From a virus (Duplodnaviria; Caudoviricetes): a DNA stretch of 55,640 nt. The stretch covers positions 1 to 55,640 of the IMG/VR virus record IMGVR_UViG_3300026518_000670. One strand, given 5' to 3'. The stretch's first letter is position 1. Every line of letters starts with the position of its first letter. The notes under the pieces were generated by a model. That model worked only from the letters and a program-made list of their open reading frames with translations, was not told the origin of the DNA and did not search any database. Below, in pieces: positions 2,269 through 53,881 of the stretch. The position numbers were made by a program, and so were the translations under genes.

Positions 2269-2751
2269 TTATCCTCTGTGGATGGGTTGCTCGATATTGA
2301 TGTTAACAGTCGTCGCGCTCAACGCGACGCCAACCTGAAGAAGCCATCCGGTAGTCGGTGGCGATTGTGTGAGTGCTCCACTGGCAGCACAAAAGACTGG
2401 ACCCTCGGAAAAACTCCAACCAGGGTCATTCACGGAGCCACCTAGGCGCACACTGACACTTGCACCTACAGTGGATGTGGATTGTAGGGCGACGCCTACT
2501 ACCTGCTCTGCGTGGGTGCTTACCGACGTGTCTACTGGATACAGATTGCCGCCCGATGCGCGGACTACGTACATGGCGAGCACGGTTGCACCCGCTGGGA
2601 AAGACACGTCAGGCGCAGAACCTGGCGCACCGTCAGGACCAGGCTTTCCCATAATCCCTGGTGTTCCTGCCTCTACTTTCGTTGACCCCGTCTTGACTTT
2701 CACAAGCGACGGTTTCGAAACAACGGTGATGGATCCGCTTGTTGAGCTCAT
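2269..2751 (-). CDS. Virion structural protein with short collagen-like segment
   Basis: GxY triplets (GTPGIMGKPGPDGAPG). C-terminal domain resembles that of 1751..2263. Confidence 0.55.
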   Translation of the reverse strand: MSSTSGSITVVSKPSLVKVKTGSTKVEAGTPGIMGKPGPDGAPGSAPDVSFPAGATVLAMYVVRASGGNLYPVDTSVSTHAEQVVGVALQSTSTVGASVSVRLGGSVNDPGWSFSEGPVFCAASGALTQSPPTTGWLLQVGVALSATTVNINIEQPIHRG

Positions 2752-2831
2752 TTATAGGACTCCAAAATCGTTCGTTAGGCCAGTATTCAAAATCTGTTTT
2801 ATCCGATAACTATTTTCGTACTTGGTGTCAG

Positions 2832-8800: not shown

Positions 8801-11800
8801 CATAGGATGCGCCTCCGGCGGGTAGCGTGGTGGTGGCGTCGGGGAAACCAGATGCTCGGACATCACGCGAGAAGGTCATGGCCTGGATACGGGAGACCCG
8901 GGTGTGGTAGCTATCGCGCGCGCGCAGGTACTGATTCGAGCGCACAAGGAGCTGCTCGAGCTCGGCCCGCCCGACCTTCCAGCTGGGCATGATCTTGCGG
9001 ATGAACTTGTGAATGGCACTAATTGCCCGATCCAGCCAGGCGTTTCGCACACCCCACTCGGCCAAAACAGCCAGTGTTTCAGCGGCGAATTCAGACGATC
9101 CTGTGCTGGAACCGTACCGTCTCTGCACCTCGGCGATCACACTCTCGATGCGGCTGAGACCTCGATTGATGTCCTTGCCGGCGGCAGCGTTCTGTTCCTG
9201 CTTCTGCAGCACGCGATCGCGCATGCCCTGCACCGAGGTGGCGACCCTGTCCCATGCGCCAGCGCCCAGCTCGTCATCGATGATACGGTCGACTCCGTAA
9301 TGGCCGACCGCCTCGTGCGCCAGCGTGCGCTGCACGTCGGCCTTGTCGAACAGGTTGGATGCGACCAGGTAGAGCGTGCGTCCATCGTAGAAGCCCTTGG
9401 CGCCTTTGTAGCGCGGATCCGTCTTCGCCGAGCCCGGAAGTGCCTCGCCATCATCGACCACGTGAACCTTGGGCTGCTGATTGCCCCACGCGCGCGTCTG
9501 CTGTGCGACGACGTCCTGCACCTTTCTGGCATGCGCGGCACGTGCATTGCGTGCCTCCGCATCGACCCCGGAGAGATTGTCACGACTCAGCGAGAACAGC
9601 TTCACGTTTCCTTCGGGCGTCTTCTCGCTGTCGATGGTGTTGAAGAATTCGTCGTAGGCCGCACGGATCGCGGGGATTTCGTCGGCCGTGGGATACGGGT
9701 AATCACCGTTGCGATCGAATGCTTCTCCGCTTACCACGTTTGCCAGGTAGTCATTGGCAGCGTTCTGGTCCTTGAGCTTGCCAATCACGTACGATTCGAA
9801 TGCCCGCGCCGACATTTCGCGCCCGGTCGACCAGTATTTCTTGCTCTTGATCTTGTCCAGGCGTTCGGAGCGCCGACGCACGTCGCTTTCAGCGATCGTG
9901 TTCTTGATGCGCACGAATGCGCGCGTGAGCTCGTCGCGCACACCCGGGACAGACTGGCGGCCGGACTCCGTCATGAATCCATCGGGGGATCGACGATCGG
10001 TTCGGCGCTTCTGGAAGTGGTTGTCCAGGGCGTGCCACCATTCGTGCGCCAGCGATCCCGGACCGCCATGCTTGGTGAGGTTGATCACCACGGCACGGGA
10101 CTCGAAATGTGCCGCCGCTGGGTTCTTTCCGCCCTTGCCGCGCGCCCCGAAGGCCAGACCGAGCTCACCATTCAGCGAGAGCGCGGCCGGGGGGATTTCC
10201 AAGACACCGGCCATATCCATCAGCGCGTCGTAGGCATTGTTGAGGTCCTGCTGCCTACGCGCGTACTCCACATAGTTGCCGAACTGGACACCACGGAAAC
10301 CGAAGGTGTCGCTGAACTGCTGCGGCGTGACGTCAGCACCATCGCGGTGATCAATGCCGATGCGGGTCTCGTTTTCGGCGCGGCGCACGGCCGGCTTCTC
10401 GCGCATCTTGGCCACGCGCTCAATGAGAGCTTCGCGATTTTCGTTCAGATAGGCGCGAGCCTTCTTCAGCGCTACGCTCTTATCCGCATCGTCGAAATGC
10501 TCCATGTCGATCGCGTCGCGCGGGATCTTCAGGCCGATGAAGTATCCTAACTTTCCCGGTCTGGCGTAGATGATCAGTGGCGGCTGACGCTTGGCCTTCT
10601 GCTTCTTCTGCTTCAGCTCCGGCAGCTTCTTCTTGAATTCCGCCAGGGCCTCTTCGCGCGTGTTTCCGACGGCCATCTGGTTGGGCCAGTTGCCGAAGAC
10701 ATTGCTGCGTCCCTTCTTCTCGATGGACCATTTCGAGACGTTCTCCTCCCCCCTGAATAGGGCGTAATGGTTCTGTTGGAAGGTCACCCCCTGAAGCGAT
10801 ATGTCGTGTCCGATTTCCTGGTACAGCTCCATTCGGCCTCGGATGCCACGGTTCAAGACTTCGCGTTCGGGTTTGCTCATTTCCTCCCGCACGCGCTCCC
10901 ACGACACATCGCCAGATAGAAGGTCTTGGGCAAACCCACGCAGCAGCTTCACTGAATCAACCCATCCCCTGAGCTTCCAGCCGCGCGGCTTCCGCGGAAT
11001 TTCGTCGCGGATGGCGTGTACGAAAGACACAACCTCGGGATCGACGCCGTTCTCGAGCAACTTCTCGTATTTCGGAGCCGGCCAGCTCTCCGAGAGAGGC
11101 GTTTCGGCAATGTCTGCTTCGCCAGCCCTTTTCAAGGCATCGACGTACTCGGTGCCGTAGTGCTTGCGCGCGCCGTGCAGGGTCTGGCCGAAATCTTCGA
11201 TCTTTTCGCCCTTTTCGGTCGCTGTCTTGTCGGTACCGGGGTCCTTCACCGTCTGCTGCGGCGCGGCCTTGTTGTTGCCGGCCGGGATCAGGGCATTGAT
11301 CGCCTTGTTCGCGGCCTTGTCGTCCATGTGCATGTAGTAAAGGTCGTCGACGGCTGCCGCGATCTGCTGCGCCGAGACGCCGGCGTCGACGGCGCGCTCG
11401 ATCAGGCTGCTGTCAAGCCGGTCGTACTTGTTGGCCAGGGTCATGGCCATGTTGTCGTGCGCGTTGTTCGCCATGAAGAACGAATAGGCAAAGCCCTCGG
11501 GGGTCACGCTGCGCGCGTTCTTCGTGGCCTGGCTCTTGCCGCCGTACTTCTGATGCATCTTGGAGCCTTCGGTGGGCTCCACGGGCGCGATCGGCAGATC
11601 CGCGTTGAAGCGGCCCCACAGCAACGTCTTCTTCGTGTACGGGTCGCCCAGATCGTTAGGGTTGAACGACAGGCGCCACGGCGGCAGGCCGCCAAGCTTT
11701 TCGATGCGCCCGACCGGGTTCTCGATCGCCCAGACCGCAGGCTTGAAGTATTCGATGGTCCGCAGGGTCTGATGCACCAGCTTGACGCTTGAGACGGTGC

Positions 11801-14800
11801 GGCCGTCAGCGTCTTTCGCCGCAAAATGGCGGGCGCCGGACACGGCGAAGTCCGTGCACGGGCATGCCGCAAGAATGGCGTGCACGTCAAGGCCGTCGAA
11901 GCTTCCGAACAGTTCGTTGAAAAAATCCACGCTGAAGTTATGGATGTCCCCGACCTTGCGTTCCTTGCCGTTCGCATCCGTGAAAGTGCCGGTGTCCTGG
12001 ATGTCGAAGCGATAGACCTGGTAGCCGGCTTCCTCCCACGGCTTTGACCACTGACCTGTCAGGTCAAACAGCGACAGCACGATCTTCTGGCTGTTTTCGT
12101 TGCGTATTTCCGTGTCCGCGCCTTGCGCGGCGGCGTGCGCTCGCCACTTGGCGATCTTCTGCTTGGCTTCCTTGACCGACATCCAGCCGTGCTCGTCCGT
12201 GTAGACCTTGGCCTTTTTGTCGAGGCGTTCAATCTCGGATTTTGCCGGCGGCTTGAAGATGTTCGTTACCGCCTGGCCGTCCTCCATCATGCTCTTCTGA
12301 GCCTGATTGAACTCCTGAACGATCTGGCCCAGCTCGCGATCGTCGGCGCCGACATGGACATGCTCGGGGGCGGTGGCGTTGTCGAGCGACTTCTCGTATT
12401 TCTCTGACGGCCGCGAGTACATGATGCCATCGGGCGTTTCGGCGCGCGTCCATCCGTCTTGGGCCTGCCGGCGCTTGAGCGCGTACAGCAGGCGATTTGT
12501 ATCGCCCTTGCTATTGCCCTCTTTCCAACCCTTCTTGAGCATGACAGAACGGACGAAATCGCCCGAATTCTCGCCTTCTCTTGGCAAGATCAACAGCTCG
12601 GCCTGACCGCTTGTTTCGATCATGCGCCGTGCGGTGGGCATGGAAAGGTTAAGCCGCGCATCAAATCCGGCCGGATCCAGGTGCAGCATCACACCACGGT
12701 TCTGTCCCTGGCCAAGAGCCAGATCCCGCGTGCTGGCGGCAAACTTCTCGTTTAGCCCGGGGCCGGAGCTCCTGCGCATGCCTTCCATAAGCTCCACGGC
12801 GCCATGCGCGTTCGTTTCCCGGTACAGGTCCGTGGTGACCTTGTCCGCCGGACGCATGGGGTTGTACTTGGGTATCTCGTGCCGTTCGAGCTCGGTTTGT
12901 GCCGAAGGGTCGGCCGCGCTCGCATCCGGCGCGCGCTCGCTGACCGGATTCGATGTGTCGCCGTTGTGCAACCAGTCCTTGAATTCGGCCATGGACATGT
13001 CGTTCACGGGTCCGACCTTCCAGCCCTTGTCGAAGTTGGACAGGTACGCAGCTATGGCCTGTTTCTCGCTGTCAAAGCCGATCATGGCTTTGTGCTCGTC
13101 GAACTTGCCAGTCTTCTGGTCGATCTGATCGACCACATAGACGCGATCGCTGTCCGGGTTCGGGCCCACGTAGACGTCGACCTGTTCGTTGTCGGCTCCC
13201 ACGGTGCGTTTCACGTATCCGTAGTGATCGCTCATCGTGTTCGACCAGGCCTTGCCGTCCTCACTCACACCGCTGCGCGTGGATCCGCGCGGGTTCTCGA
13301 TGCTGATGTCCAGACCCTGCACCGAGACGTGGCCTTTCTTGTAGTTGCCCGCATCCTTCTGGGCATCCGTGGGCTCCGGCGCTTCGTTATTCGGCGATGA
13401 GGCTGCTTCTTTGGCTGCCGATTCGACCTTCGCGGCCGTGTCAGCTGGCTTGGCATTCTCCTTGGCCGGTGCCTTGATCTCGGTTTCCGGCACAGCTTTC
13501 AGGCCCTGTTCGATATCGTCCGGGTGCTGCTGCATCAGGACGGATTGCGGATCCCTGAGCTGCGCCGGTTTTGTCTCACCGATCGCTTTCAGCGCTATGC
13601 GTGCCTGCTCATCGCTGAGCGCCTGCACCTTCGGACGCAGCGCCTCAGCGCGCGCGCTGAGCTCTTGGCTGGCCTGGGACGGGTTTTTCTGTTGTTCCTG
13701 GTATCTGGCATGCGCAGCCTGCGCTTTAGGGGAAGGCTGGGCCGGATTGAGCGCCTTCTCAATAGCTGCATGGTCCTTGGCATCGAAGCGCAGGCCTCCG
13801 GCCTTGAGCGCGCGGCCCTTCTTCTTGAATCCCGCCTTGCTGAGCGCGGCACGAATCGCCGCCGGGTCGCCGTGCACGACCAGCCCCTTTGGTCCCTTCT
13901 GCGTGATCTTGAACGACTGGCCGGCGGACTGAGGCGCGGCATTCTCGGACGACTGCGTCTTGGCTTCCTCGGGCGCCGGCGCCGGTGTCGGCGTTTTCTC
14001 CGGAATCGGGGGCTTGGCTACTTCCCGGGCTTTCTCGCCGCCGGCAGAACCAGCTTGGGTTCCTGCACGTCGAGCTTGTTCCCCGCCGACACCACGGCCT
14101 GCATCATGGCCCTGTCGAGCTCGGGGCTCGCTTGGTTTGCCTGCCGCGTTGAAGAGGGTTCCTGCCTGCTTCGGGGCGCTTTCTTCGCTCCCATACCGTT
14201 TCTCCTGGTCCCTGCGGACCATGTCGATGACATCGGCGGCCGCGAGCTTCGGTGCACCGAACATATCATCATTGCTGGCGTGCTGCTGGTGGCGTTGCAC
14301 AATCTCTCCGGCATACCGCAAGCCTTCGGCCATGCGCTTGGCCGATCGCGCGTTCGCCGCGAAGAACTCGGCCCAGGCATCGCCTGACGTGTCGCGCCCG
14401 ACAAGATCGCCCTGCGCGAGCAGCTTCCCGACCTTCTGGCCATTGTTGTGGGCCTGATGGATGACGTTCATCGCCGCAGCGAAGCGCTGCGCGTAATCGC
14501 CCATCGGCCCCTTCGGGTCGATTTTCGCCCACGTCGGCGCGGCGATGACCAGTGCGTTGAGTGCGTTCCTGGCATCGGGGTTCGTTTCCTCGGCCTGCGC
14601 GGCGATCAGCTTCGGATCCCCGTACGCCTTGGCGAAGATCGCGGCGCGGAGCCGGTCGAAGTACGCCTTGTTGGCCGCGCCGTCGGCCGTGACCAGTTGT
14701 CCGCGCTCGGCCGGGCCAAGCGCGTTCAGGAACTTGCGGTGGAAGGTGGCGCTCATGTTGGTGGAGATTCCACCATCGGCTGTCAGCGGCAGGTCGGCCA

Positions 14801-17126
14801 GGTCTGGGAGCGCGCGCGCATCGGTCTGCGCTTGTTCGGTAGGGGAAAGTCCCAGGCTCGTCGAGGCATTCGATGCCGCACCCATGTCGCCCTGGTTGTG
14901 CTTGGCGTCGTACAGACGCACGACCATCGGCCGTTCCTTGGACTGGATCGCGGACGGCGAAATGCCAAGCATTTGCGTATCGTCGATCAGGCCCTGCTTG
15001 TAGTCCTTGCCGTTTCCGCGCTTCCACGCGGCCTGGATGCCTGCGGTGCGGCCGTTGTTCAGGGCCTGCAGTGGAGCATTGGCGTAATCGCTGTTGACGG
15101 TGCCATCTGCGTGATGGGATGCGGCCACAGTGTTGGCGTCGACGACCGCGTACTGCACCGGAATGGATCGGCCATCAGCCAGCCTCACCTGGTCGGTCTT
15201 GCCTCTGTCCTCGGCCGGCACGGCCTCGTCAGGCGTCTTCGACGCTACCATCGGCGCGCCCGAGTTGGCGTCGCGCGAGAACGACAGACGCGTCGGGTCC
15301 GGGTTCTTGGCGATTTCCTGCATCTGGACGACGCTGGCTGCCCTCGATCGGTCACGGTTCTGCAGCGTGGCTCCCTCCGGCGCCGCGCTCTGTTCTGTGC
15401 CTGCGGCTACCGCCTGTGACTGCTCGGCCTTGGTGGCCGCCGTGGCGGTATCGGGCGAGGACTGCAAATCTGCCTGCATCTCGTCGAAGTTCCGTGTCGC
15501 CGGCTCAAGCGGACGGTTTGCTTGCAAGGCCTCCCCCATCATGCGACTTGCCGGGCGACGGGCTTTCTTGATTTCGGATTCGGATACGCCCCATGCCTTG
15601 GCCAGCTCGGGCACGTTGATGCGGGTGGACCGATGCGCGCGCCACTGCGCATCGATTTGGTGGGCCAGCTGCCGCACCAGCTGGCCTGGATGCGGAGCAT
15701 GGGCTTCTCCGGTGTCTTGATCGATCCATGCGGCCGGTAGCGGCTCTACCAGGGCCGGCTTCTCAGCTTTGACTGAATTTGCTGCGGGGCGGGTTGTTTC
15801 GCCAGCCTGATTGTCTGGGCCGGCCACCGTGCCCGTCACCTTTGCACCCTCAGCTGCTGTCTTTGAGGCTGCTTCGGCCAGTGGATCGATTTGATTGGCC
15901 ACATCGCTGATACTGCCCGGTGCGGCGCCAGGGAAGCGTTCAACAACGGGTTCACCGGCATGATCTTGGGTGTGCGAAGTGCGATGCAAAACACCTGCCG
16001 GCGCATCGAAGACACCACCACCCAGCGCACCGGCTGCGCCACTTTCGAAGTAATCGCGCCAGGCATCCGGGCCCGTGGTTGGTGCACCGCCGCCCACACG
16101 CTCAAGGTACGACTGGGCCACCTCCGTACTGCCCTCACGCGCAGCGCCGCCAAGTGCCTCGCGCGCCACACGTCGCAAGACGCTGCCGCCCTTCGGGCTG
16201 GCATGCAGAAAGCGCCCGAGATTGATGGCTTCGGCAGCGGTATCAATGGAGCCCGCAACAATGCCAGCCCCGACTGCCTGCGCGGCCTGGCCGCGCGATA
16301 TGTCTTGCGGGTTCACACCCTGATCGAGACGATTTTCCACCGCCTGACCCGTTTCCAGCGCTGAATTGAGTCCGGTAGCGCCAAGCACACCGCCCAGCTT
16401 TCGAGCCTCGGCGGTTCCGGCATCGCGGATGAGCTTTGCGGCTCCTGCCTCTGCCACATCCTTGCTGACACCCTTGGCCAGTTGATTCTCGACATAGCGT
16501 TCGGCAAGTTGCCTGGCCTCATGCAAAAGAGCCTTTTTCCCGACCAGACCCGCAGCTCCGCCAGTGATGGCGCCGGCGACATTCCCCGCCCCTGGCACAC
16601 CCGACCCAACTGTGCCTCCGATGGCTGCTCCTCCAAGCGCCGTAATAGCTGACTGTAGGGCCTGACCGGAAAGGTTGCCAAGCGTCGATCCGGCCCAGTC
16701 ACCGAATTTTGCTTTGCCCTTGAACACATCTTCCAGGCTGGGGCCAGCCAATGGCTCGCCTTGCTTTTTCCCGTACCGGTACAGACTCGCGCCGTAGCGG
16801 GTGAGCTTGGGGCTATCAATCAGCTGGCCGGCCGCGATACCGGCCGCACCCAGCAATTCCTGGTCCTGTGGAATGGTTTGCTGCAACCCGCGCTTGAAGG
16901 ATGTCCCGAACCCACTCGAGCGCGACTCATCGACCGATGGTGATGCAGGCGAGCCCGACTCCAGCATCGTGAAACCTTGAGGTGGCGTAGGACGCTTGAG
17001 CGTAGGTGGCGACGATGCAGAAGGCTTCGAAGTGCGGGCGCTGGTATCAGTGTTGTCTTGCTGTACGGGATCGAGGACACGAAACCCGGATGGCGGAGCA
17101 AGGAGGTCAGTCACAGCGGTATCCAT
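2832..17126 (-). CDS. Giant polyvalent internal virion/DNA-ejection protein (PLxRFG-type C-terminus), 4764 aa
   Basis: Motifs N to C: Gly/Ala hydrophobic helices; DdrB-like ParB (LQNRDRSR, YAVVD..., NNGRT); inorganic pyrophosphatase (GNYKKGH, HYGY, DVYVG, FDEHK); C5-DNA MTase-like (LSLFDLTG, CPCTDF, IENP); LPD5/LPD1-like (KIEDFG, GVQFGNY, AHEWWH); two HEAxGHYG zincin domains; JAB/RadC (HNHPSG...D); ADP-ribosyltransferase (VYHGT, GYDGI); PRTase (VLVDDVTTMGGT); YFPLDRNG. Confidence 0.9.
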   Translation of the reverse strand: MDTAVTDLLAPPSGFRVLDPVQQDNTDTSARTSKPSASSPPTLKRPTPPQGFTMLESGSPASPSVDESRSSGFGTSFKRGLQQTIPQDQELLGAAGIAAGQLIDSPKLTRYGASLYRYGKKQGEPLAGPSLEDVFKGKAKFGDWAGSTLGNLSGQALQSAITALGGAAIGGTVGSGVPGAGNVAGAITGGAAGLVGKKALLHEARQLAERYVENQLAKGVSKDVAEAGAAKLIRDAGTAEARKLGGVLGATGLNSALETGQAVENRLDQGVNPQDISRGQAAQAVGAGIVAGSIDTAAEAINLGRFLHASPKGGSVLRRVAREALGGAAREGSTEVAQSYLERVGGGAPTTGPDAWRDYFESGAAGALGGGVFDAPAGVLHRTSHTQDHAGEPVVERFPGAAPGSISDVANQIDPLAEAASKTAAEGAKVTGTVAGPDNQAGETTRPAANSVKAEKPALVEPLPAAWIDQDTGEAHAPHPGQLVRQLAHQIDAQWRAHRSTRINVPELAKAWGVSESEIKKARRPASRMMGEALQANRPLEPATRNFDEMQADLQSSPDTATAATKAEQSQAVAAGTEQSAAPEGATLQNRDRSRAASVVQMQEIAKNPDPTRLSFSRDANSGAPMVASKTPDEAVPAEDRGKTDQVRLADGRSIPVQYAVVDANTVAASHHADGTVNSDYANAPLQALNNGRTAGIQAAWKRGNGKDYKQGLIDDTQMLGISPSAIQSKERPMVVRLYDAKHNQGDMGAASNASTSLGLSPTEQAQTDARALPDLADLPLTADGGISTNMSATFHRKFLNALGPAERGQLVTADGAANKAYFDRLRAAIFAKAYGDPKLIAAQAEETNPDARNALNALVIAAPTWAKIDPKGPMGDYAQRFAAAMNVIHQAHNNGQKVGKLLAQGDLVGRDTSGDAWAEFFAANARSAKRMAEGLRYAGEIVQRHQQHASNDDMFGAPKLAAADVIDMVRRDQEKRYGSEESAPKQAGTLFNAAGKPSEPRARQGHDAGRGVGGEQARRAGTQAGSAGGEKAREVAKPPIPEKTPTPAPAPEEAKTQSSENAAPQSAGQSFKITQKGPKGLVVHGDPAAIRAALSKAGFKKKGRALKAGGLRFDAKDHAAIEKALNPAQPSPKAQAAHARYQEQQKNPSQASQELSARAEALRPKVQALSDEQARIALKAIGETKPAQLRDPQSVLMQQHPDDIEQGLKAVPETEIKAPAKENAKPADTAAKVESAAKEAASSPNNEAPEPTDAQKDAGNYKKGHVSVQGLDISIENPRGSTRSGVSEDGKAWSNTMSDHYGYVKRTVGADNEQVDVYVGPNPDSDRVYVVDQIDQKTGKFDEHKAMIGFDSEKQAIAAYLSNFDKGWKVGPVNDMSMAEFKDWLHNGDTSNPVSERAPDASAADPSAQTELERHEIPKYNPMRPADKVTTDLYRETNAHGAVELMEGMRRSSGPGLNEKFAASTRDLALGQGQNRGVMLHLDPAGFDARLNLSMPTARRMIETSGQAELLILPREGENSGDFVRSVMLKKGWKEGNSKGDTNRLLYALKRRQAQDGWTRAETPDGIMYSRPSEKYEKSLDNATAPEHVHVGADDRELGQIVQEFNQAQKSMMEDGQAVTNIFKPPAKSEIERLDKKAKVYTDEHGWMSVKEAKQKIAKWRAHAAAQGADTEIRNENSQKIVLSLFDLTGQWSKPWEEAGYQVYRFDIQDTGTFTDANGKERKVGDIHNFSVDFFNELFGSFDGLDVHAILAACPCTDFAVSGARHFAAKDADGRTVSSVKLVHQTLRTIEYFKPAVWAIENPVGRIEKLGGLPPWRLSFNPNDLGDPYTKKTLLWGRFNADLPIAPVEPTEGSKMHQKYGGKSQATKNARSVTPEGFAYSFFMANNAHDNMAMTLANKYDRLDSSLIERAVDAGVSAQQIAAAVDDLYYMHMDDKAANKAINALIPAGNNKAAPQQTVKDPGTDKTATEKGEKIEDFGQTLHGARKHYGTEYVDALKRAGEADIAETPLSESWPAPKYEKLLENGVDPEVVSFVHAIRDEIPRKPRGWKLRGWVDSVKLLRGFAQDLLSGDVSWERVREEMSKPEREVLNRGIRGRMELYQEIGHDISLQGVTFQQNHYALFRGEENVSKWSIEKKGRSNVFGNWPNQMAVGNTREEALAEFKKKLPELKQKKQKAKRQPPLIIYARPGKLGYFIGLKIPRDAIDMEHFDDADKSVALKKARAYLNENREALIERVAKMREKPAVRRAENETRIGIDHRDGADVTPQQFSDTFGFRGVQFGNYVEYARRQQDLNNAYDALMDMAGVLEIPPAALSLNGELGLAFGARGKGGKNPAAAHFESRAVVINLTKHGGPGSLAHEWWHALDNHFQKRRTDRRSPDGFMTESGRQSVPGVRDELTRAFVRIKNTIAESDVRRRSERLDKIKSKKYWSTGREMSARAFESYVIGKLKDQNAANDYLANVVSGEAFDRNGDYPYPTADEIPAIRAAYDEFFNTIDSEKTPEGNVKLFSLSRDNLSGVDAEARNARAAHARKVQDVVAQQTRAWGNQQPKVHVVDDGEALPGSAKTDPRYKGAKGFYDGRTLYLVASNLFDKADVQRTLAHEAVGHYGVDRIIDDELGAGAWDRVATSVQGMRDRVLQKQEQNAAAGKDINRGLSRIESVIAEVQRRYGSSTGSSEFAAETLAVLAEWGVRNAWLDRAISAIHKFIRKIMPSWKVGRAELEQLLVRSNQYLRARDSYHTRVSRIQAMTFSRDVRASGFPDATTTLPAGGASYGKLSKVRQSGVSESTAPSGRRAGSPVPGQLDLFAQSGNPESEAATRRGALELTQHVKQVATGQFRSGIKRITRWEDAAHIIAPLRKSPQEQFLAVVADADGRPLAVLRHTIGIADGATVNPGLVFGSVAEIPGATDVWFAHNHPSGNVDQSRADKNITDTLIDLMKGSGITAHGMITVAPGETDASFYQEGGAVGGFRSKITTAARTGTVPRLERRYRRITKQFGAFKITSPEDAPQIARKFKEPGVILLNNRHNVIGFMPVSMSEMAKLRTGRTDSGSARIASILTQANASAGIIMADKLEPAQNLGRLINDMGIRALDVFTPEDGKTTSTTKFFNSAAARGQQTMAGHFYSFQEPSEAQQVGVATAPVGSDTYKRAQAAVDKVTEKWRGDMPKVHVLESARQLPADAKTDPRWRSAEGFYDGRTIYLVAPNLKSSERVHQVLAHEAIGHYGIDRIVDDALGAGAWDKIAQSIQDLREQGKGSKAMRDVLAEVSRRYGDVDPGTFAEETLAVMAEKGVRNGIMDRVVAAVHAFVRRFMPSLKLSEDELRQLLVRSERFLQTGDTIDSRPVAGGGAISFAQAEPTSSPAFRKFFDGSKVTTPDGQPKMVYHGTSEGFYTFDDASLGNNTGHMTAPLGHFFAEKRSSAQRYAETASQGVPADERVIDAYLSIKKPKSMTLDELMAIDSQKEARALRDKLQSQGYDGIHIPEARQWVAFKANQIKSATENRGTFDSNNPDIRFSLPDQTRSKGIPDEASDPIALWRNMQPLKRNPHYAAAKAGDMQAAVDLVTEVAAPLAKQAEKFGSDAIFVAPHAEEATGKNAIPRTLAAYLAEHTGGTDDTEIVQTNRTLHTGANAMERMIARSTFSGPVKEGGRYVLVDDVTTMGGTLADLASYIQANGGEVVGTAVLTNASRSGTLRADAKLKQQIEGRYGDEIRNQFHVDPAALTADEARYLIGFRSAGELRNRAAAAARSRSERIRAKGLRKEAPQDILSTTTETPPNGGVSGSGRRNFSLPDASVNTMSSVLETPDQSAWERAKGWLTGKWEDIKPATLGALQLRHVLELAEEHPALKGARQYADINQRMDADRNQLMTGSPDASEHPNSMLMKGVAPIADQWRGWAFHKGIKGMRGGLTEHAKRLNKLMHDATILGLDPSEEYTRLSMEDSRGELSEWTPEKIKDRIRALRGQMRGRPGDDKTLMMDEVKRLRAIPAREKLREKRWPTLVARWNALPESARETYRQVRNWYREHADATERALLERIDAMDVPETYRRSMKDRIRFQFESNRREGVYFPLDRNGDYWLSATDSNNQYAFKMFESAAELKAAESKLRKAGFTIEATGRRDSSARAKDAPSGTFVKDIIGMLQKARVSEKVQDDIYQMFLKSLPEMSMRKRSIHRRSVPGFSDDALRAFAKNGFHGAHQLARLRYSQQMSTVLEAMQISLDNYRRSSEFGESTKAEGLSAAKGDALLTELKRRHDWIMSPKDSQLANMATSIGFMYYLGASPASALVNLTQGAQVTLPVLAAKHGWGKASRELGRATAAALRTGGNIMRTLNEEEKRAYKVLERRGDIDRTNAHTLAGTAEGNVLTSNPGWAKVMNVMSWMFHKAEVVNREAAGVAAFRLARADGKSFDEAVRHASDTINGTHFDYSNANRPRFMQNGVSKVLLQFKNYSVGMTWLMYRNLYQAVRGQSPEVRRLARRTLTGMLGMTALLAGTVGLPLFNLMKMVANAAHAAAGDDDEPWDFETEFRQWLAEHFGQTGADVIADGAVDRLGLHISSRVSLSNLWFRDADRQLEGKDAYYNMLESIAGPMGGMVKNWFIGQQYITQGHIWRGVERMIPTAAKSGMKALRYAAHGVNTLRGDPILEDPSAENALVQALGFTPTNLADQYRINSALYNYSDQIKNRRTSLMNAFAMAVHEHDDQARQVALKKIRSFNAKNPAIAITTKTLVQSLRQRARLSAQAEHGVVLSQRVRQMAQREAGISVVH
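5785..5804 (-). other. Intragenic GC-rich hairpin, terminator-like on the coding strand
   Basis: ACCCCGCC-GAAT-GGCGGGGT followed by TTCT on the minus strand. Encodes TPPNGGV in an interdomain linker. Confidence 0.4.
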
Positions 17127-48267: not shown

Positions 48268-48944
48268 ATACAGCCAAGAAGCACAGCATGGTGAACAGGA
48301 CCGCGTTCGGTATCTTCCTTTCCGTCCTGTTTGTCATGATGGGTGTGGATCTGTGGCCACACCCGCGCACGATGCAGACGCCGCTTTCCTTGCCCGCACC
48401 GGCGGCACCATCCCTGCGCGCGCACCCACAGCCGGCCGTGGCTGGGCTCCCGCTTGCCGCCACGCGCAGCGCACCCGTGCTGATGGGTCGCGCTTGCGTT
48501 GCGCTGGCTGTGTACGTCGAAGCACCGCATGCGGGATGGCTGGAACAGGCCACCATCGCATCCACCGTCATCAATGCCGCGCGCGCCCACCATCAAGCAT
48601 CCCCATGTCAAGCGATCCGTCAGCCAGGCCTCGTGCCCGGCATAGCGGCTTACCTGGACGATACGCCGCCTTGGCGGGCGCACCCTCAACGCTGGATGCA
48701 TGCGATGGACGTGGCCGATTCAGTGCTCAGCGACGACTACTCGTTTGGTACCCGGGGATGCACGACCACCACACGAATGCTGCCTTCCCGGGCCCCGCGC
48801 CCGGCATGGGCCCGGTCCATGCGGATGACATGCCGCGTCGGACAACACCTTTTTTTCACGCCAGCCATACCTCCCGTGGTTGCGGTTGCCCAGCGAACCC
48901 CCCCCCCGACGAATGGGCAGTCGATGAATGCAGCATGCATGTGA
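48264..48944 (+). CDS. SleB-like cell wall hydrolase (Hydrolase_2), divergent, with N-terminal TM
   Basis: CVALAVYVEA...QATIASTVIN...CQAIRQPG...VGQHLFF matches the CLAxxxYxEAR...C.VV.Q...IGxHxFY pattern. Confidence 0.6.
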   Translation: MNTAKKHSMVNRTAFGIFLSVLFVMMGVDLWPHPRTMQTPLSLPAPAAPSLRAHPQPAVAGLPLAATRSAPVLMGRACVALAVYVEAPHAGWLEQATIASTVINAARAHHQASPCQAIRQPGLVPGIAAYLDDTPPWRAHPQRWMHAMDVADSVLSDDYSFGTRGCTTTTRMLPSRAPRPAWARSMRMTCRVGQHLFFTPAIPPVVAVAQRTPPPTNGQSMNAACM

Positions 48945-49021
48945 GGGCGATCAGGGCCGTCCCTCGCCGGCACCGGCAGCCGACTGCATAGCCGGAACCT
49001 CACCACCGCAAGGAAAGGCCC

Positions 49022-50074
49022 ATGTACAAGTCCATTTCAGTCGAAGTCGACGTCGATGTGTCTGACGTGATCGACATGCTTGACCCAGACGATCTGCACC
49101 AGTTCGGGTTATCGGAAATCGATGTCCGAAGCGCGCACAAAAGCCCATGGATCGACGTGCGCTTAGCCGTCCTCCGCGGCGATCGTGCCGGCGGCAACCA
49201 CAAGATCCTTCCGGCGTCGGTCGTCAACGCAGGCGTGGCCGACAAGGTCCGCAAGATCGCCGAGGCCGAGGGCCGGCGCGTCGGCAGCCGCGAGCGCAAG
49301 CGCATCAAGCAAGCCGTCTTCGACGAGCTCATGCCTCGCGCATTCTCCCAGCCTTCCAGTCTGCAGGTCTGGCTGGACCTCACCAACGGATGGGCCGCGA
49401 TCGATACCAGCAGCCGCAAGGCCGCCGAATCGGCAATCAGCATGGTGCGCGAGGCCCTGGGCAGCTTCCCGGCGGTGCCACTGGCGCCCGAGCGCTCCGT
49501 GCGCCAGGTGCTGACCCACTGGCTGCAGACCGGCGACCTGCCGCCCGGCCTTGTGCTGGGCGATGAATGCGAGCTGCGCGACGCGGCCAACGCCGGCGGC
49601 GCGGTCACCCGCAGCCGGCATCAGGAGCTGGAGTCGGACGAGATCCGCGAGCACCTGCGCGCCGGAAAGCAGGTCTACCAGCTGGGCCTCGAATTCGACG
49701 AGCGCCTCGGCTTTGTCTTGGACGAGGCCCTGACCGTGCGCAAGCTCAAGCTCTTCGACGTGGTGGAGGACCAGCTCGACACCAGCGGCGCCGAGACCAT
49801 CGCCGACGATCTCGGCGCGCGCGTGCGCCAGCTCGAGACCTTCATCGGCACCGAGGCTCACGCGGCGCTCACGAGATCGAGGCCGTCGACGTCAGCGCCG
49901 GTCAGAAGGACGACATCGTCGCGCTGGCCAAAGCCACCGGCGCCGACCTGGCCGCAGAATGGAAGGTTACCGAGGACTGGCTGGCCACGATTTCCAAGCC
50001 CGCCCTGCTGGCTGGCTGCCACCGGCCCTGCGCGAGAAGGAGAAGCCGCGCCGCAAGAATGTCACCGGCGGTAA
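49022..50074 (+). pseudogene. rdgC: Chimeric ORF containing the central part of RdgC
   Basis: KILPASVV...EGRRVGSRERKRIK...ELMPRAF...LGSFP...LGDECELR...EIREHLRAGKQVYQLGL matches RdgC. The normal MWFKNL-type N-terminus and the C-terminus are replaced. Confidence 0.7.
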
Positions 50075-50088
50075 GGCCGCCGCAGCCA

Positions 50089-50358
50089 ATGACCAAGAGG
50101 AGGCAGACCGTGATGCTGCAGGCGCTTGAAATGGGTGCCCGTGGGCTACCTTCACGTGGCCTTAAGCCGGCGGCCGAGTTGGCCAAAGTCCGGCCGCACG
50201 GTACGCGCCTGAAATACGTCGGTGGCTGCCGGTGTGATGCGTGCCGGTCAGCAAACTCCGCCTACGAGCGAGATCGTCAACTGGCGCGAAAGCATGGCGA
50301 CTGGAATGGCCTGGCGAGCGCTCGACGCGCGCGCCGACCCAGGGTAGTCCAGCCATGA
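50089..50358 (+). CDS. Small Cys/His zinc-binding protein, possibly truncated
   Basis: HGTRLKYVGGCRCDACRSAN motif frequent in phage proteins. Start uncertain. Confidence 0.5.
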   Translation: MTKRRQTVMLQALEMGARGLPSRGLKPAAELAKVRPHGTRLKYVGGCRCDACRSANSAYERDRQLARKHGDWNGLASARRARRPRVVQP

Positions 50359-50699
50359 GCTACTGCCGCTGGTCCACCGACTGCGACGTCTACGTCTACG
50401 AGGGCGGTATGAGCGGTTTCATGGTGCATGTGGCCGCCTCGCGCTACGTCTTCAAGGATCCGCTTCCTGATCCCGTCCTCTACACAAAGAGAAACTTCAA
50501 GGAATGGTTTGCCTGGCATGAGCGCGTGCGCGAGATGACCAATGTGGCCGCGCTAGAGACGATCGACCTTCCGCACGACGGCGAGACCTTCAACGAACCG
50601 ACACCTGCGGCATGCGCTGACCGCCTAGAGCAGCTCAAGGCGCTCGGCTACCGGGTACCGCAATACGCCATCGATGCCCTTCGCGAGGATATCGAATGA
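50355..50699 (+). CDS. Hypothetical phage protein
   Basis: MSYCRWS..DVYVY N-terminus. ATGA-coupled. Confidence 0.65.
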   Translation: MSYCRWSTDCDVYVYEGGMSGFMVHVAASRYVFKDPLPDPVLYTKRNFKEWFAWHERVREMTNVAALETIDLPHDGETFNEPTPAACADRLEQLKALGYRVPQYAIDALREDIE

Positions 50700-50785
50700 A
50701 ACCGACCATCATTGTCGCCGGCCTTGGCCGCTGCGATGGCGACGCAATGGACGCTTTAATCCGCGTTGACTTGCAAGCCCTCTAA
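50696..50785 (+). pseudogene. 29-aa remnant with sulfotransferase-like P-loop start
   Basis: MKPTIIVAGLGRC, then divergence. Stop codon lies inside the CTCTAAC core site. Confidence 0.35.
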
Positions 50786-50808
50786 CGATCTCGGACGCAG
50801 TGTTATGC
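50780..50808. other. Internally deleted attC-like site
   Basis: CTCTAAC-N15-GTTATGC. Confidence 0.45.
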
Positions 50809-50828
50809 GCCACCTACCGGAAAACGAA

Positions 50829-51047
50829 ATGAAAGATGACCGTGCAACATCCATCGAACTGATACGCGACGACTACGACGATTTTGTGCACCCGTACCCG
50901 TGGCGCTTCGCGATCACCCACAAAGGCAAGAGGCACGAGTTTTGCGGGGCGCCAAACAAATGCAAAACACCTGGAGCCGCATTGCGCAGGGCACAACAAC
51001 GACTGAAATGGCTCGAAGACGGCACCTACGCCGAACGCTACAAGTGA
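50829..51047 (+). CDS. Cassette-borne hypothetical protein (72 aa)
   Basis: Bounded by complementary cores GTTATGCG ... CGCATAAC. Confidence 0.65.
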   Translation: MKDDRATSIELIRDDYDDFVHPYPWRFAITHKGKRHEFCGAPNKCKTPGAALRRAQQRLKWLEDGTYAERYK

Positions 51048-51048
51048 C

Positions 51049-51108
51049 GCATAACGATTGCGATAAGCCGCCGCGCTTTTTGCGGTCGGCTTAATTAGCT
51101 GGTTAGGT
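51049..51108 (-). mobile_element. attC-type recombination site (60 bp)
   Basis: Minus strand: ACCTAAC-CAGCT-AATTAAGC-CGACCGCAAAAAGCGCGGCG-GCTTATC-GCAATC-GTTATGC, i.e. 7-5-8-20-7-6-7 geometry with an unpaired A after AAGCCG as in the aadA1-type attC. Confidence 0.75.
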
Positions 51109-51111
51109 GCG

Positions 51112-51291
51112 ATGATTGACTGGGCACGAATAAACGACTTGATTGAATGCTCGGCCTGTGGCGGTACTGGACAGAATGAGCGAATACCAGACGACCAGCG
51201 GAAAGCATGGATTGAGCCATGCCCCTGGTGCAAAGAGCGCGGGTATTTCCTGCCGGGAGAAAATAATGGGATACGAACCGAAACTGACTGA
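51112..51291 (+). CDS. Small zinc-finger protein (59 aa, DnaJ-type CxxCxGxG), absent from the ORF track
   Basis: CSACGGTG...CPWCKERG. Starts 3 nt after the attC. Confidence 0.55.
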   Translation: MIDWARINDLIECSACGGTGQNERIPDDQRKAWIEPCPWCKERGYFLPGENNGIRTETD

Positions 51292-51544
51292 ACGGGAACG
51301 CGGAATATGGCGCATGGCGCTAACGCTGGCGAATAATATCTGTGTGCGCGAGAGCGACAGAATGAACGCCGATGATTACACCGCCGAGGCACAGACGGCG
51401 GCGGATTGCGCGAAAGCAATACGCGACTGGCTTGACACCGATGACGAGCATCTTGCGCGGATGCTGCGTGATGCAGGGGTGCGCGAATACCCTGACCCGA
51501 TATGCGAGGCGCTGAATAGTGGTAATGGTTCATACCGGCCTTAG
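51266..51544 (+). CDS. Cassette-borne hypothetical protein (92 aa)
   Basis: GGGAG SD. The stop TAG overlaps the GCACCTAAC core. Confidence 0.65.
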   Translation: MGYEPKLTERERGIWRMALTLANNICVRESDRMNADDYTAEAQTAADCAKAIRDWLDTDDEHLARMLRDAGVREYPDPICEALNSGNGSYRP

Positions 51545-51545
51545 C

Positions 51546-51572
51546 ACCTAACGCCGCCTTAACCGGCGCGGC
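51546..51572. other. Half attC-like site
   Basis: ACCTAAC-GCCGC-CTTAACC-GG. The partner arm is absent. Confidence 0.5.
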
Positions 51573-51587
51573 CACAGGAGATTGACG

Positions 51588-52061
51588 ATGTGTGACCTAC
51601 TCACAGACCCTTACATGGACGCCGCGCGCGCGCCAGCCGGCTACAGCAAGCCCCAAGTAGGCGCTCTGACGCGTTTCAGCCACAAGGGAGGCACGTTCAA
51701 CACTTACCTGTCGGATCTCCGACGAAGTGGCTTCCTGGACGAGCATGACGGCCTGCTGTTTGCCTCGGTGTACGGCATCCAAGCGCTGGGCGCCGATGTG
51801 CCGATCGCGCCGAAGAGCCACGACGACGTCATGGCGCAGTGGCAGCGCGCGCTGCGTGCCGGCGCGTTCCGGATCCTGCACAGCATCGTTGCCGCGGGTC
51901 CGGCGGGTATCAGCCGCCAGGACTTGGCCCTGGCCGTCGACATGACGGCCAGCGGGGGCACGTTCAACACGTACCTGTCCGATCTTCGCCGCAACGGCCT
52001 CATCACGGATCGGGACAGCATCTGCTATGCGAACGACATCCTTTTCCCGGAGGACCCATGA
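51588..52061 (+). CDS. Tandem winged-helix protein, probably a C-terminal fragment of a larger protein
   Basis: GGTFNTYLSDLRR occurs twice. Confidence 0.6.
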   Translation: MCDLLTDPYMDAARAPAGYSKPQVGALTRFSHKGGTFNTYLSDLRRSGFLDEHDGLLFASVYGIQALGADVPIAPKSHDDVMAQWQRALRAGAFRILHSIVAAGPAGISRQDLALAVDMTASGGTFNTYLSDLRRNGLITDRDSICYANDILFPEDP

Positions 52062-52609
52062 TCAAGGAAGCGATCCAGCGCAAGCTGGCCCTGTATTTCC
52101 AGCTCCACTACGTCCAGACCCGAATGCCCGATTTCATCATCGGAGGTCTCGACGACGCCTATCTGTTGCGCTGGTACATCACGCCGTGGACCGCCTGGCG
52201 CCGGGACGTCCCGGATAAGGACCGCAGTTGGTGGTTTCGCCTGGTCGCGCGGCTGCCGGCGATCTACCTGCACGTCTTCCTGCGCGACGACGACGATCGC
52301 GCGCTGCACGATCATCCATGGAACAACGTGAGTTGGGTGCTCCTGGGCAGCTACATCGAACACACCATCCGCGCCGGCGGCATCCATGTCCGCACGCTTC
52401 GCCCGCGCGGATCGGTGAAGTTCCGCTTCGCCAGAACTGCGCACCGCGTGGAACTGATCAATCGCGCGCCTTGCATGAGCCTGTTCTTCACTGGCTGGCG
52501 TTGGCGCCACTGGGGTTTCCACTGCCCCGACCGTGGCTGGGTGCCATGGCGTGTTTTCACTGCCGTGAATGATGGCGACCGCGGCGCGATCGGACGGGGA
52601 TGCAACTGA
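52058..52609 (+). CDS. Cupin-like protein (HDHPW family)
   Basis: IYLHVF..DDDRALHDHPW...GSYIE...HRVEL...LFFTG...WGF. Confidence 0.75.
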   Translation: MIKEAIQRKLALYFQLHYVQTRMPDFIIGGLDDAYLLRWYITPWTAWRRDVPDKDRSWWFRLVARLPAIYLHVFLRDDDDRALHDHPWNNVSWVLLGSYIEHTIRAGGIHVRTLRPRGSVKFRFARTAHRVELINRAPCMSLFFTGWRWRHWGFHCPDRGWVPWRVFTAVNDGDRGAIGRGCN

Positions 52610-52977
52610 TGGATTTGACCAAAGCTTTTTCCATCGCAGAACAAGACAGCCCGGCTTCATGGATCGCCAAGGAAGCTCTTCGGACCATGGCCGCCGAGAT
52701 CGAACGCCTTCAGTCCCGTATATCGCCACAGGCTCACGATCCCAAAATCAGACCGATCCGTTATCTCGATTCACACGCTGACATGCTTCGTATTTGGGCC
52801 ACTGGGATCGACTCAGGCGAAATCGATCTCCCTGATTCGGTGCTCATGGTCGTAATCCATAACGACGGACGAAAACCACAACTTTTCCAAACCGCGACTG
52901 CACCCAACAATCTGATCGCCATCGGAGCATTGATGCATTCCGTCTACCGCATTCTTGGAGTTTTAGACGATGACTGA
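52600..52977 (+). CDS. Hypothetical protein
   Basis: Overlaps both neighbours in the operon. Confidence 0.55.
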   Translation: MQLMDLTKAFSIAEQDSPASWIAKEALRTMAAEIERLQSRISPQAHDPKIRPIRYLDSHADMLRIWATGIDSGEIDLPDSVLMVVIHNDGRKPQLFQTATAPNNLIAIGALMHSVYRILGVLDDD

Positions 52978-53881
52978 CCGCAAACCCATCCTGTGCCTCG
53001 ACTTCGACGGCGTCATCCACGCCTACACGAGCGGCTGGAAAGGTGTTACTCGCATTCCCGACCCCCCGGTCCCTGGCGCGCTGCAGTTCATCGTGGCCGC
53101 GCTGGACCGGTTCCAGGTGGCCATCTACTCGAGCCGGTCCCGGACCTGGTTCGGACGCCAGGCCATGCGGGCGTGGCTGCTCAAGCACCTGATCGACCTG
53201 TCGCCTAACACCCCGCAGGAGGCCCCGGACTGGTGGTACCGGCGTGTCGCGCGCACGGCCTTCGCGGATCCGTGGTCCGAAGAGGTGATCTGGGCGGCAA
53301 AGAACGTGTGCCGGGAAATCCTGTGGGCCAAGCACAAGCCGCCGGCTACGGTCAGCATCGACGATCGCGCGCTGCTGTTCGACGGCACGTTTCCGTCCTT
53401 GGACATGCTGGCCAGCTTCCAGCCCTTGACCAAGCGCTTCGTAGGCGTCGACCACGGATCCGATGATCTGACATGTATGGTCACGGCCGACCGGGACGAG
53501 ATCGGAACGATCGGTCATGTTGACCACGGCAAGACGACGCTTGCGGCGGCGCTGACGAAAGTCGGAATGCAACAGCCGCCCGCTTGGGAAGACAGGAATC
53601 TTATCGAGCTCGCGGCCAAAGTTGCGGGGTACGAATCCGAAGGCTATGAAGACGGCGGTTGGCTGGTGATGCGGTACGGACTGCATACCGCTTTATGGAT
53701 TCCCGCGATCGAGCGGTATTGGAATCCCCTCGAAGATGACGGCGACGCGCTGCGCCTGGCGGTGATGCTGAATCTCAGCTTCGAATCGAGTCCGACGGAG
53801 GAACTGCACGGAACAGATCGGTACGCCGCCACCCGCAAAGCGATCGTCATGGCTGCGGTCGCCATGGCCGAGGATTGCTGA
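52970..53881 (+). CDS. Mosaic protein: HAD-family hydrolase + EF-Tu-like P-loop peptide + WNPLxDDGDA domain
   Basis: CLDFDGVI, SSR, KPP..SIDDRA (HAD motifs I-IV); IGTIGHVDHGKTTLAAALTKVG; WNPLEDDGDALRLAV...ATRKAIV. Confidence 0.8.
   Translation: MTDRKPILCLDFDGVIHAYTSGWKGVTRIPDPPVPGALQFIVAALDRFQVAIYSSRSRTWFGRQAMRAWLLKHLIDLSPNTPQEAPDWWYRRVARTAFADPWSEEVIWAAKNVCREILWAKHKPPATVSIDDRALLFDGTFPSLDMLASFQPLTKRFVGVDHGSDDLTCMVTADRDEIGTIGHVDHGKTTLAAALTKVGMQQPPAWEDRNLIELAAKVAGYESEGYEDGGWLVMRYGLHTALWIPAIERYWNPLEDDGDALRLAVMLNLSFESSPTEELHGTDRYAATRKAIVMAAVAMAEDC

Follow-up and report, generated by a model that had tools for sequence, protein, structure and literature searches.

The early region of a prophage poses the question of how to explain a 60-bp hairpin with the layout of an integron recombination site that lies between small genes read in the direction opposite to that of ordinary integron cassettes. 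The prophage was found in a stretch of 55,640 nucleotides from a virus of the Caudoviricetes (IMG/VR record IMGVR_UViG_3300026518_000670, the whole of which is referred to here as the window), which is recognised as a prophage by its gene content and lies on contig C40 of a 2.8-Mb host genome, G000. Gram-negative bacteria capture genes mainly through integrons, and the movement of integron cassettes between cells is only partly understood. The attC sites of integrons are imperfect palindromes, 57-141 bp long, that combine L boxes, a terminal loop and central spacers left unpaired over 5-6 nucleotides (nt) with outer cores of the form RYYYAAC...GTTRRRY. An earlier note on this DNA had proposed an array of attC-type cassettes in the phage operon, and the element on which that proposal turns is the following (the slash marks the point of cutting or crossover here and below):

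51049 to 51108, plus strand (the putative recombinogenic bottom strand): intact attC site of 60 bp, with the predicted integrase cut at GCATAA/C, between 51054 and 51055.

The element consists of GCATAAC (51049-51055), segments of 5, 8, 20, 7 and 6 nt and a terminal GTTAGGT (51102-51108), which is the spacing of 7-5-8-20-7-6-7 first reported for it, and it forms an imperfect palindrome of 60 bp with L boxes and spacers of 5 and 6 nt. When folded as single-stranded DNA, both strands give a 12-bp stem with one unpaired base, as also described before, and on the plus strand this base is T 51086 in the 3' arm. The earlier description of the cores holds for the right one, GTTAGGT being a fit to GTTRRRY, and is off at the third base of the left one, where GCATAAC carries an A and fits RYYYAAC at six of seven positions. 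A hairpin of this kind might instead be a mere terminator, attenuator or RNA-processing signal that resembles attC by chance; it is intergenic and G+C-rich, it folds better than shuffled sequences (z -2.5), and attC sites are themselves said to be weak terminators (PMC9892861). A terminator scan makes no call at the site, no T tail follows the stem, and a promoter scan of 48800-52300 returns no sigma-70-like site, within the predicted cassettes or elsewhere. The three covariance models described below, which match the site in a strand-asymmetric manner with E-values of 1e-11 to 5e-21, together with the occurrence of the same hairpin family beside integron integrase (IntI) genes and the placement of framing words at the ends of the open reading frames (ORFs), make a chance likeness exceedingly improbable. 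A search of 50000-52200 with Rfam at E≤10 gave eight matches, all far under their gathering scores and none meaningful at the attC.

The identity of the element as an attC site was approached through its relatives. The central 24-nt hairpin is found unchanged in 92 metagenome stretches and in one viral contig of IMG/VR, and AAC and GTT cores are present at the same spacing in 67 of 75 unique complete copies of this family. The L-box pairs of the family alignment covary (pair 21/53 is AU in 26 copies, CG in 22 and UA in 5), to an extent that none of 500 shuffles reaches. Covariance models, all built in the bottom-strand orientation, replaced a first hairpin-plus-core scan which gave many chance matches in the G+C-rich window and genome. 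Model R1 comprises the 75 unique complete copies minus the eight without both cores. Because the family had been selected by its centre, R2 and R3 were built from other sites: R2 from 31 attC-like sites on the same contigs (35 short candidates less L086:6363 and L146:4095, which are too like the family hairpin, and the doubtful L091:316 and L131:267), and R3 from the 24 that are left when seven sites from L080/L154 are removed, none of them from the viral contig. The source sites of R2 and R3 covary strongly, with changes to both partners in 11 of 14 inner pairs and a score that none of 500 shuffles equals. The window site is matched by R2 at 53.5 bits (E 1e-11) and by R3 at 56.3 bits (E 7e-12). 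At E≤1 over the whole host genome R2 reports three sites only, of which that in the window is the best, the others being the attC of a host integron (36.6 bits) and a site on contig C19, and R3 recovers four attC sites in the class 1 integron of plasmid R46. Direct sequence comparison agrees, in that 46 nt of the window site are 78-80% identical to the attC found with the DUF1010 cassette in class 1 integrons (e.g. that of plasmid R46).

Homologues of the host IntI are encoded 0.5-3 kb from copies of the hairpin family at L086 (54% identity over 240 amino acids, aa), L152 (61% over 147 aa) and L113 (58% over 43 aa, where the contig ends). These are three of 84 unique copies, most of which are on contigs of 1-3 kb that are too short to judge, and the window copy itself has no IntI beside it. 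The L086 homologue (2365-3813) is split into two ORFs with attC sites of the same polarity on either side, an unusual arrangement. When 400 genomes of the class were searched with the DNA, the hairpin was matched in genome G356 (40 nt, 85% identity), and blastn of the 71-nt element against 50,697 phage records gave no match. The G356 site is the third of three core-bounded hairpins which lie 1.3-1.5 kb apart around low-G+C minus-strand genes (L079:7124-10069, on G356 contig C2), and the IntI of G356 is on another contig, which leaves the three sites as a cluster without integrase. Judged by its sequence, 51049-51108 is an integron attC site, established short of an enzyme assay. The attC identity put forward earlier is therefore borne out by models of 53-56 bits made from other sites and by the IntI genes that adjoin some family copies, and the test proposed with it, an attC covariance model run on both strands, yields a match on the plus strand only.

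The direction of the site can be read from its unpaired bases. In the top strand of an attC site the extrahelical bases share an arm with AAC, and in the bottom strand they are found on the other arm; one of them is a conserved T (position 23-24), which a 6-bp stem separates from another base at position 16 (PMC5027507). In the plus strand of the window AAC belongs to the 5' arm. T 51086 and A 51093, which counted from the 3' end occupy positions 23 and 16, are separated by 6 bp and both belong to the 3' arm; because the unpaired bases are on the arm opposite AAC, the plus strand corresponds to the bottom strand. In keeping with this, R1 scores 70 bits on the plus strand and 15 bits on the minus strand, and R2 and R3 match the site only on the plus strand, which is that of the genes. 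Among control sites for which the gene direction is known, R3 matched all 11 on the strand opposite to that of the genes (four in R46, one in the host integron, four in L086, one in L152 and one in a toxin-antitoxin cassette on C19). These results support an attC that is reversed relative to ordinary integrons, its predicted bottom strand being the coding strand of both the cassette ORFs and the phage operon, and they bear out the earlier claim of genes antisense to the attC. The opposite assignment, with the plus strand as an ordinary top strand, was considered and rejected on the strand-specific scores and the side of the unpaired bases. In an ordinary cassette the ORF is on the top strand, upstream of its attC; here the ORFs are on the bottom strand. 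From the reversed polarity it follows that the cut is predicted at GCATAA/C of the left core on the plus strand and not, as had been supposed, at G/TT of the right core. The predicted cut delimits two cassettes, 50786-51054 and 51055-51551, and the region is laid out as follows, all on the plus strand:

50696 to 50785: phage ORF of 29 aa, overlapping at its start with the stop codon of the preceding gene and ending in TAA 50783-50785, which forms the predicted left junction of the insert, CTCTAA/C.
50780 to 50808: putative attC remnant of 29 bp, CTCTAAC, 15 nt and GTTATGC, with the L boxes and hairpin missing.
50786 to 51054: predicted cassette Y, 269 bp, AA/C-bounded, with ORF A and the attC remnant; G+C 0.54-0.57.
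50829 to 51047: ORF A, 72 aa (80 aa from an alternative start at 50805).
51055 to 51551: predicted cassette X, 497 bp, the attC followed by ORFs B and C.
51112 to 51291: ORF B, 59 aa, with CxxC...CxxC zinc-ribbon motifs; starts 4 nt past the right core.
51266 to 51544: ORF C, 92 aa; overlaps ORF B by 26 nt.
51544 to 51552: right junction, GCACCTAA/C, the predicted end of cassette X, at which phage DNA resumes.
51552 to 51587: remainder of the phage intergenic region, 36 nt, which contains a short hairpin and, as ribosome-binding site, GGAG; the ATG of a winged-helix gene is at 51588.

Both cassettes are framed by inverted words. The 8-mer GTTATGCG (50802-50809) is the exact complement of CGCATAAC (51048-51055), and the 9-mer GTTAGGTGC (51102-51110) is the exact complement of GCACCTAAC (51544-51552), each pair being the only two copies of its word on either strand of the window. 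The cassette rule, whereby a cassette opens with bases complementary to the inner core of the attC that it carries, thus holds twice, as the earlier note had stated, at 8/8 and 9/9 bases, and it does so under either reading of the polarity. In shuffled sequences the 8-mer has a mean of 1.52 copies and occurs at least twice in 48 of 100 shuffles, while the corresponding values for the 9-mer are 0.18 copies and 1 of 100. What is unlikely to arise by chance is the placement of the words, as inverted pairs within 250-450 bp of one another and exactly at ORF ends; arithmetic from the shuffle means gives a chance of about 0.004 that such a complement falls within 300 bp of a given core, and of about 0.0008 for 500 bp. 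The stop codons abut or overlap the cores, as previously noted: TAA 50783-50785 lies within CTCTAAC, TGA 51045-51047 is one base ahead of the G of CGCATAAC, and TAG 51542-51544 overlaps GCACCTAAC.

The two outer ends differ in character. At the left end R2 matches both cores of 50780-50808 at 13.6 bits (E 0.33), skipping 34 positions of the model and with them the entire hairpin, R3 at E≤1 does not report the segment, and the spacers resemble those of the G356 site. The deleted site of the earlier note is therefore retained as to its two cores, with a weak match in R2 alone, and the reading that 50780-50808 is the attC of cassette Y after loss of its hairpin is plausible and weakly supported. 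At the right end neither R2 nor R3 finds an attC beyond 51552, and none is needed there because the bottom-strand reading makes GCACCTAA/C the plain end of cassette X; what had been called a half site is better read as a cassette end at the insertion junction. Clusters of attC sites lacking a nearby integron integrase (CALINs) are defined by at least two attC sites without IntI, and the window has one clear site and a second that is a weak match (E 0.33). The earlier description as CALIN-like is apt insofar as attC-bounded cassettes occur without an IntI; by the usual definition the array is closer to a single attC with a remnant than to a cluster. The window indeed holds no IntI, as had been noted, its sole integrase being of phage type (54017-55234), and the host IntI and the array are on different contigs (C52 and C40, respectively), so that no intI and attI adjoin the array as in a complete integron.

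The reading that we consider likely is that 50786-51551 represents two integron cassettes in a prophage, inserted by an IntI at a secondary site, of which the last attC has decayed. An integron integrase would have inserted the cassettes at a G/TT secondary site, equivalent on the plus strand to TAA/C at the stop of the 29-aa ORF, and such an enzyme is encoded elsewhere in the host genome. Later deletion of the hairpin of the last attC would have fixed the insert, ORFs A-C would be read through from the phage early promoter, and cassettes might still enter or be exchanged at the intact site if IntI were expressed. The host IntI that the earlier note had suggested is present on another contig of the same genome, where an intact gene at C52:26598-27539 scores 489 bits against a cut-off of 265 that none of 14 control genomes passes. 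It belongs to a complete integron (C52:26598-29314) with intI, attI, an A+T-rich first cassette and an attC of 72 bp, which runs off the end of C52 and whose attC sequence differs from the prophage site. A second attI copy (C42:172532-173505, 99% identity over 327 bp) stands beside the first 58 codons of an intI at the end of C42 and is followed by a cassette different from that of C52. The C19 site (C19:69187-69269) is a family-related attC of ordinary polarity (R1 34 bits, R2 29 bits) which by eye adjoins a HigB/HigA-like gene pair, and an identical 60-bp direct repeat flanks it at 68646-68705 and 70855-70914.

An alternative is that a piece of a chromosomal array was captured by illegitimate or short-homology recombination without an integrase, the cores at its ends being chance breaks or the result of decay. 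Both outer sites are defective, and the authors of a phage survey favour, for the clusters that they describe, an origin by off-target recombination, homologous or illegitimate, at motifs resembling GTTRRRY (PMC9892861). Phage early regions are moreover highly mosaic: the upstream gene has 52 relatives in IMG/VR and two in genomes, and 53 of these 54 loci share none of nine other window proteins tested, with a single weak match at L054, for which reason no comparison with an empty site is possible. The two ends, however, fall exactly on AA/C crossover points with perfect complements under the cassette rule, and joining 50785 to 51552 gives the stop of the 29-aa ORF intact, 36 nt with the small hairpin and GGAG, and the winged-helix ATG. 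Such an undamaged intergenic region would be rare under random breakage, and its restoration is the main reason for which insertion by an integrase is preferred; capture without an integrase is accordingly regarded as rather unlikely.

Several observations nonetheless weigh against integrase-mediated insertion of reversed cassettes. The left core deviates from its consensus at one base, an A is found at the usual G position of the unpaired pair, and only one site is intact, the remnant having an E-value of 0.33 with R2 and being missed by R3. The restored target GTTAGAGGGC fits three of four bases of the right-hand motif of the E. coli genome sites (bioRxiv 10.1101/2022.09.11.507474). No phage relative with an empty site or with other cassettes was found, so that no core-bounded indel is documented: megablast of the phage gives no match in the 50,697 phage records, and only short matches in 61 related genomes and in the 400 genomes of the class, apart from the 40-nt hairpin in G356. 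Of two sequencing runs, X1 is probably that of the source sample, and X2, in which identical prophage fragments are present at low depth, has neither the joint nor a contig over 50757-51912 and is uninformative either way. Finally, ORFs on the bottom strand are unusual, accounting for some 18% of the flanking ORFs (22 of 122 called) in the attC family. This count, made on 84 unique copies from the nearest called ORFs with a crude ORF call, places 100 of 122 ORFs on the ordinary strand and leaves 46 flanks without an ORF; reversed polarity is a minority state in the family.

The sequences of the three ORFs support the view that they are foreign cargo and not members of phage families. ORF A has homologues of the same length (72 aa) in Rhodanobacter sp. 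AS-Z3 (86% identity) and in a 1.2-kb metagenome contig (76%), and was not found in 400 genomes of the order. ORF B has one homologue among 1.84 billion representatives (55% identity, E 3.5e-9), none by a word-index search, and weak matches to DnaJ_CXXCXGXG and Anti-TRAP below the cut-off. Four clusters of homologues with 64-72% identity were found for ORF C, one member being from a metagenome-assembled genome of the Opitutaceae, and the homologues of the cargo as a whole are spread over different phyla. ORFs A and C belong to no family in Pfam, PHROGs, NCBIfam or PADLOC and have no relative in IMG/VR. None of the three ORFs belongs to a PHROG family, matches a toxin or antitoxin family or has a tblastn match in the phage records, and searches of Pfam, PHROGs, NCBIfam, PADLOC and the ESM Atlas suggest no function for them. 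A 253-aa minus-strand ORF (50814-51575) was considered as a cassette gene and rejected; it crosses the attC and has an antisense-like composition, while the plus-strand ORFs have conserved homologues.

The same polarity recurs in other phage-like DNA. Loci L080 and L154 are parts of one IMG/VR contig of 61.5 kb, which is the sole viral contig with the family hairpin. Its genes are all on one strand and include a DNA polymerase exonuclease subunit, a Gp2.5-like single-stranded-DNA-binding protein, an HNH endonuclease, a Mom-like protein, a C5 methyltransferase and an RNA ligase, and eight of ten ORFs tested have PHROG matches. R3, which has no training site from this contig, finds 12 distinct attC sites, and all 12 are on the gene strand. 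In L080:4626-6964 and L154:2305-4834 the sites box single genes (Mom-like, C5 methyltransferase, RNA ligase and small orphans), and adjacent cores follow the cassette rule by eye at six or seven of seven bases. L127 is phage-like (dCMP deaminase, DNA methyltransferase) and has two gene-strand sites, the second of which is inside an ORF and doubtful. L105, also phage-like (two methyltransferases, an exonuclease and a ribonucleotide reductase), has one site of ordinary polarity with a spoiled core. Reversed polarity is hence seen in three of four phage-like contexts, a small sample which is suggestive.

The contig carrying L080 and L154, with its Mom-like, C5-methyltransferase and RNA ligase genes each bounded by sites, and the shared polarity of L127 raise the possibility that the window cassettes stem from a phage-specific pool of reversed polarity which is exchanged among phages, instead of being borrowed from a bacterial integron. 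The ordinary polarity and degenerate core of L105 and the sample of four contexts speak against such an origin, as does the lack of phage relatives of ORFs A-C. Reversed toxin-antitoxin cassettes, moreover, are found by eye in ordinary arrays as well, e.g. at L145. A phage pool is on balance a doubtful source for the cassettes, albeit one to be taken seriously. Equally tentative is the more general proposal that some phages keep accessory early genes as reversed attC cassettes in which the bottom strand is the coding (non-template) strand.

The wider setting of the insert is that of an early and recombination region. The structural genes (small and large terminase, portal, major head protein and endolysin) are on the minus strand, where a single ORF of 4764 aa (2832-17126) also stands out in the structural half of the prophage, and the replication genes of the window include a DnaC-like loader and a primosomal protein. 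A plus-strand block comprises RdgC (Pfam E 4e-66), a phrog_13573 gene, the cassette region, the winged-helix gene and a phrog_4786 gene. The 766 bp of 50786-51551 are situated between the 29-aa ORF, for which a profile search gives no family match, and the winged-helix gene, and the phage integrase follows about 2.5 kb downstream. The sole relative found for the winged-helix gene (157 aa) is the C-terminal part of a 574-aa ORF at L069:4759-6483 (73% identity), whose surroundings are unrelated to the window, and the gene may be a free-standing or truncated domain. The G+C content is 0.53-0.59 over 50725-51549, compared with 0.63-0.76 upstream and 0.63-0.71 downstream. The enclosed DNA is therefore AT-richer, as claimed before, although this is not unique to the cassettes in that 52600-53049 of the same operon is equally low. 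An ORF of 125 aa in that stretch (52600-52977, G+C 0.49-0.55) resembles another foreign insert in the operon; it has no Pfam or PHROG family and no adjoining attC model match. In an ORF of 303 aa (52970-53881), residues 177-199 match the GTP-binding motif of EF-Tu (Pfam GTP_EFTU) at E 2e-5, below the cut-off, and a spike of read depth at 53501-53559 in both sequencing runs is as expected if tuf genes of many organisms map there.

Phage-borne attC cassettes have been published before. A survey of 10,705 phage genomes reports three integrons, one In0 and 17 attC clusters, states that the cargo of phage CALINs is often orphan genes or DNA methyltransferases, and describes recombination by IntI1 of five of six phage attC sites tested (PMC9892861). 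The window resembles these phage CALINs and integrons in having attC sites and cassettes without a nearby IntI in a phage or prophage, and differs in that the survey requires at least two predicted sites, whereas the window has one intact site and a remnant, reversed, in a host with its own integron. The arrays of TJE1 and PH101 are termed typical in direction, and the text of that survey holds no discussion of sites reversed relative to their genes, although its supplementary position tables were outside the search and could bear on this (PMC9892861). Full-text literature searches returned no report of reversed attC polarity in phages, and as far as found the orientation is the new point. Single cassettes outside integrons (SALINs) are comparable in that they sit at a GWT genome (attG) site; they are expressed if a promoter is upstream, are excisable and may give rise to small clusters (bioRxiv 10.1101/2022.09.11.507474). 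Unlike the present case, they have been shown for IntI1 in the E. coli chromosome, while the present insertion would be into a prophage, with a decayed second site and a partial fit to the motif.

The closest known attC is that of the DUF1010 (orfD-type) cassette of R46, which has the same architecture and shares the stem AAGCCG...CGGCTT within its 46 matching nt; it nevertheless lies downstream of its gene in ordinary polarity, with R3 on the opposite strand, and the DNA matches have weak E-values of 0.04-0.5. The reversed toxin-antitoxin cassettes of chromosomal integrons have genes independent of the integron promoter (PMC13108822), and like them the window has a possible two-gene module in the overlapping ORFs B and C, but ORFs A-C match no such family and the predicted cassettes have no promoter-like site. 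In T4-type phages, repeated intergenic stem-loops (PeSLs) flank orphan early genes, which are shuffled as small circles (PMC2839356). PeSLs differ in carrying a sigma-70 promoter, acting as terminators and recombining by homology without a dedicated recombinase (PMC2839356), whereas the window element has integrase cores and no promoter-like or terminator-like signal.

The recurrence of reversed polarity in two further phage-like contigs suggests either strand selection in phages or a separate phage cassette pool. If some phages do keep their accessory early genes as reversed cassettes and these genes run with replication, the recombinogenic strand would also be the lagging-strand template. 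Placement of bottom strands on that template greatly raises excision (PMC13108822), and for this reason reversed arrays would be highly recombinogenic when the host IntI is induced, with early genes being swapped among phages. The window would then be a small, partly fixed example of an arrangement of which the 12-site array of L080/L154 is the full one, and a cassette that passed from a phage array to a host integron, or the other way, would end up in antisense orientation and remain silent. A prophage with cassettes in a host with a working-looking integron would, in any case, constitute a direct vehicle for cassette traffic.

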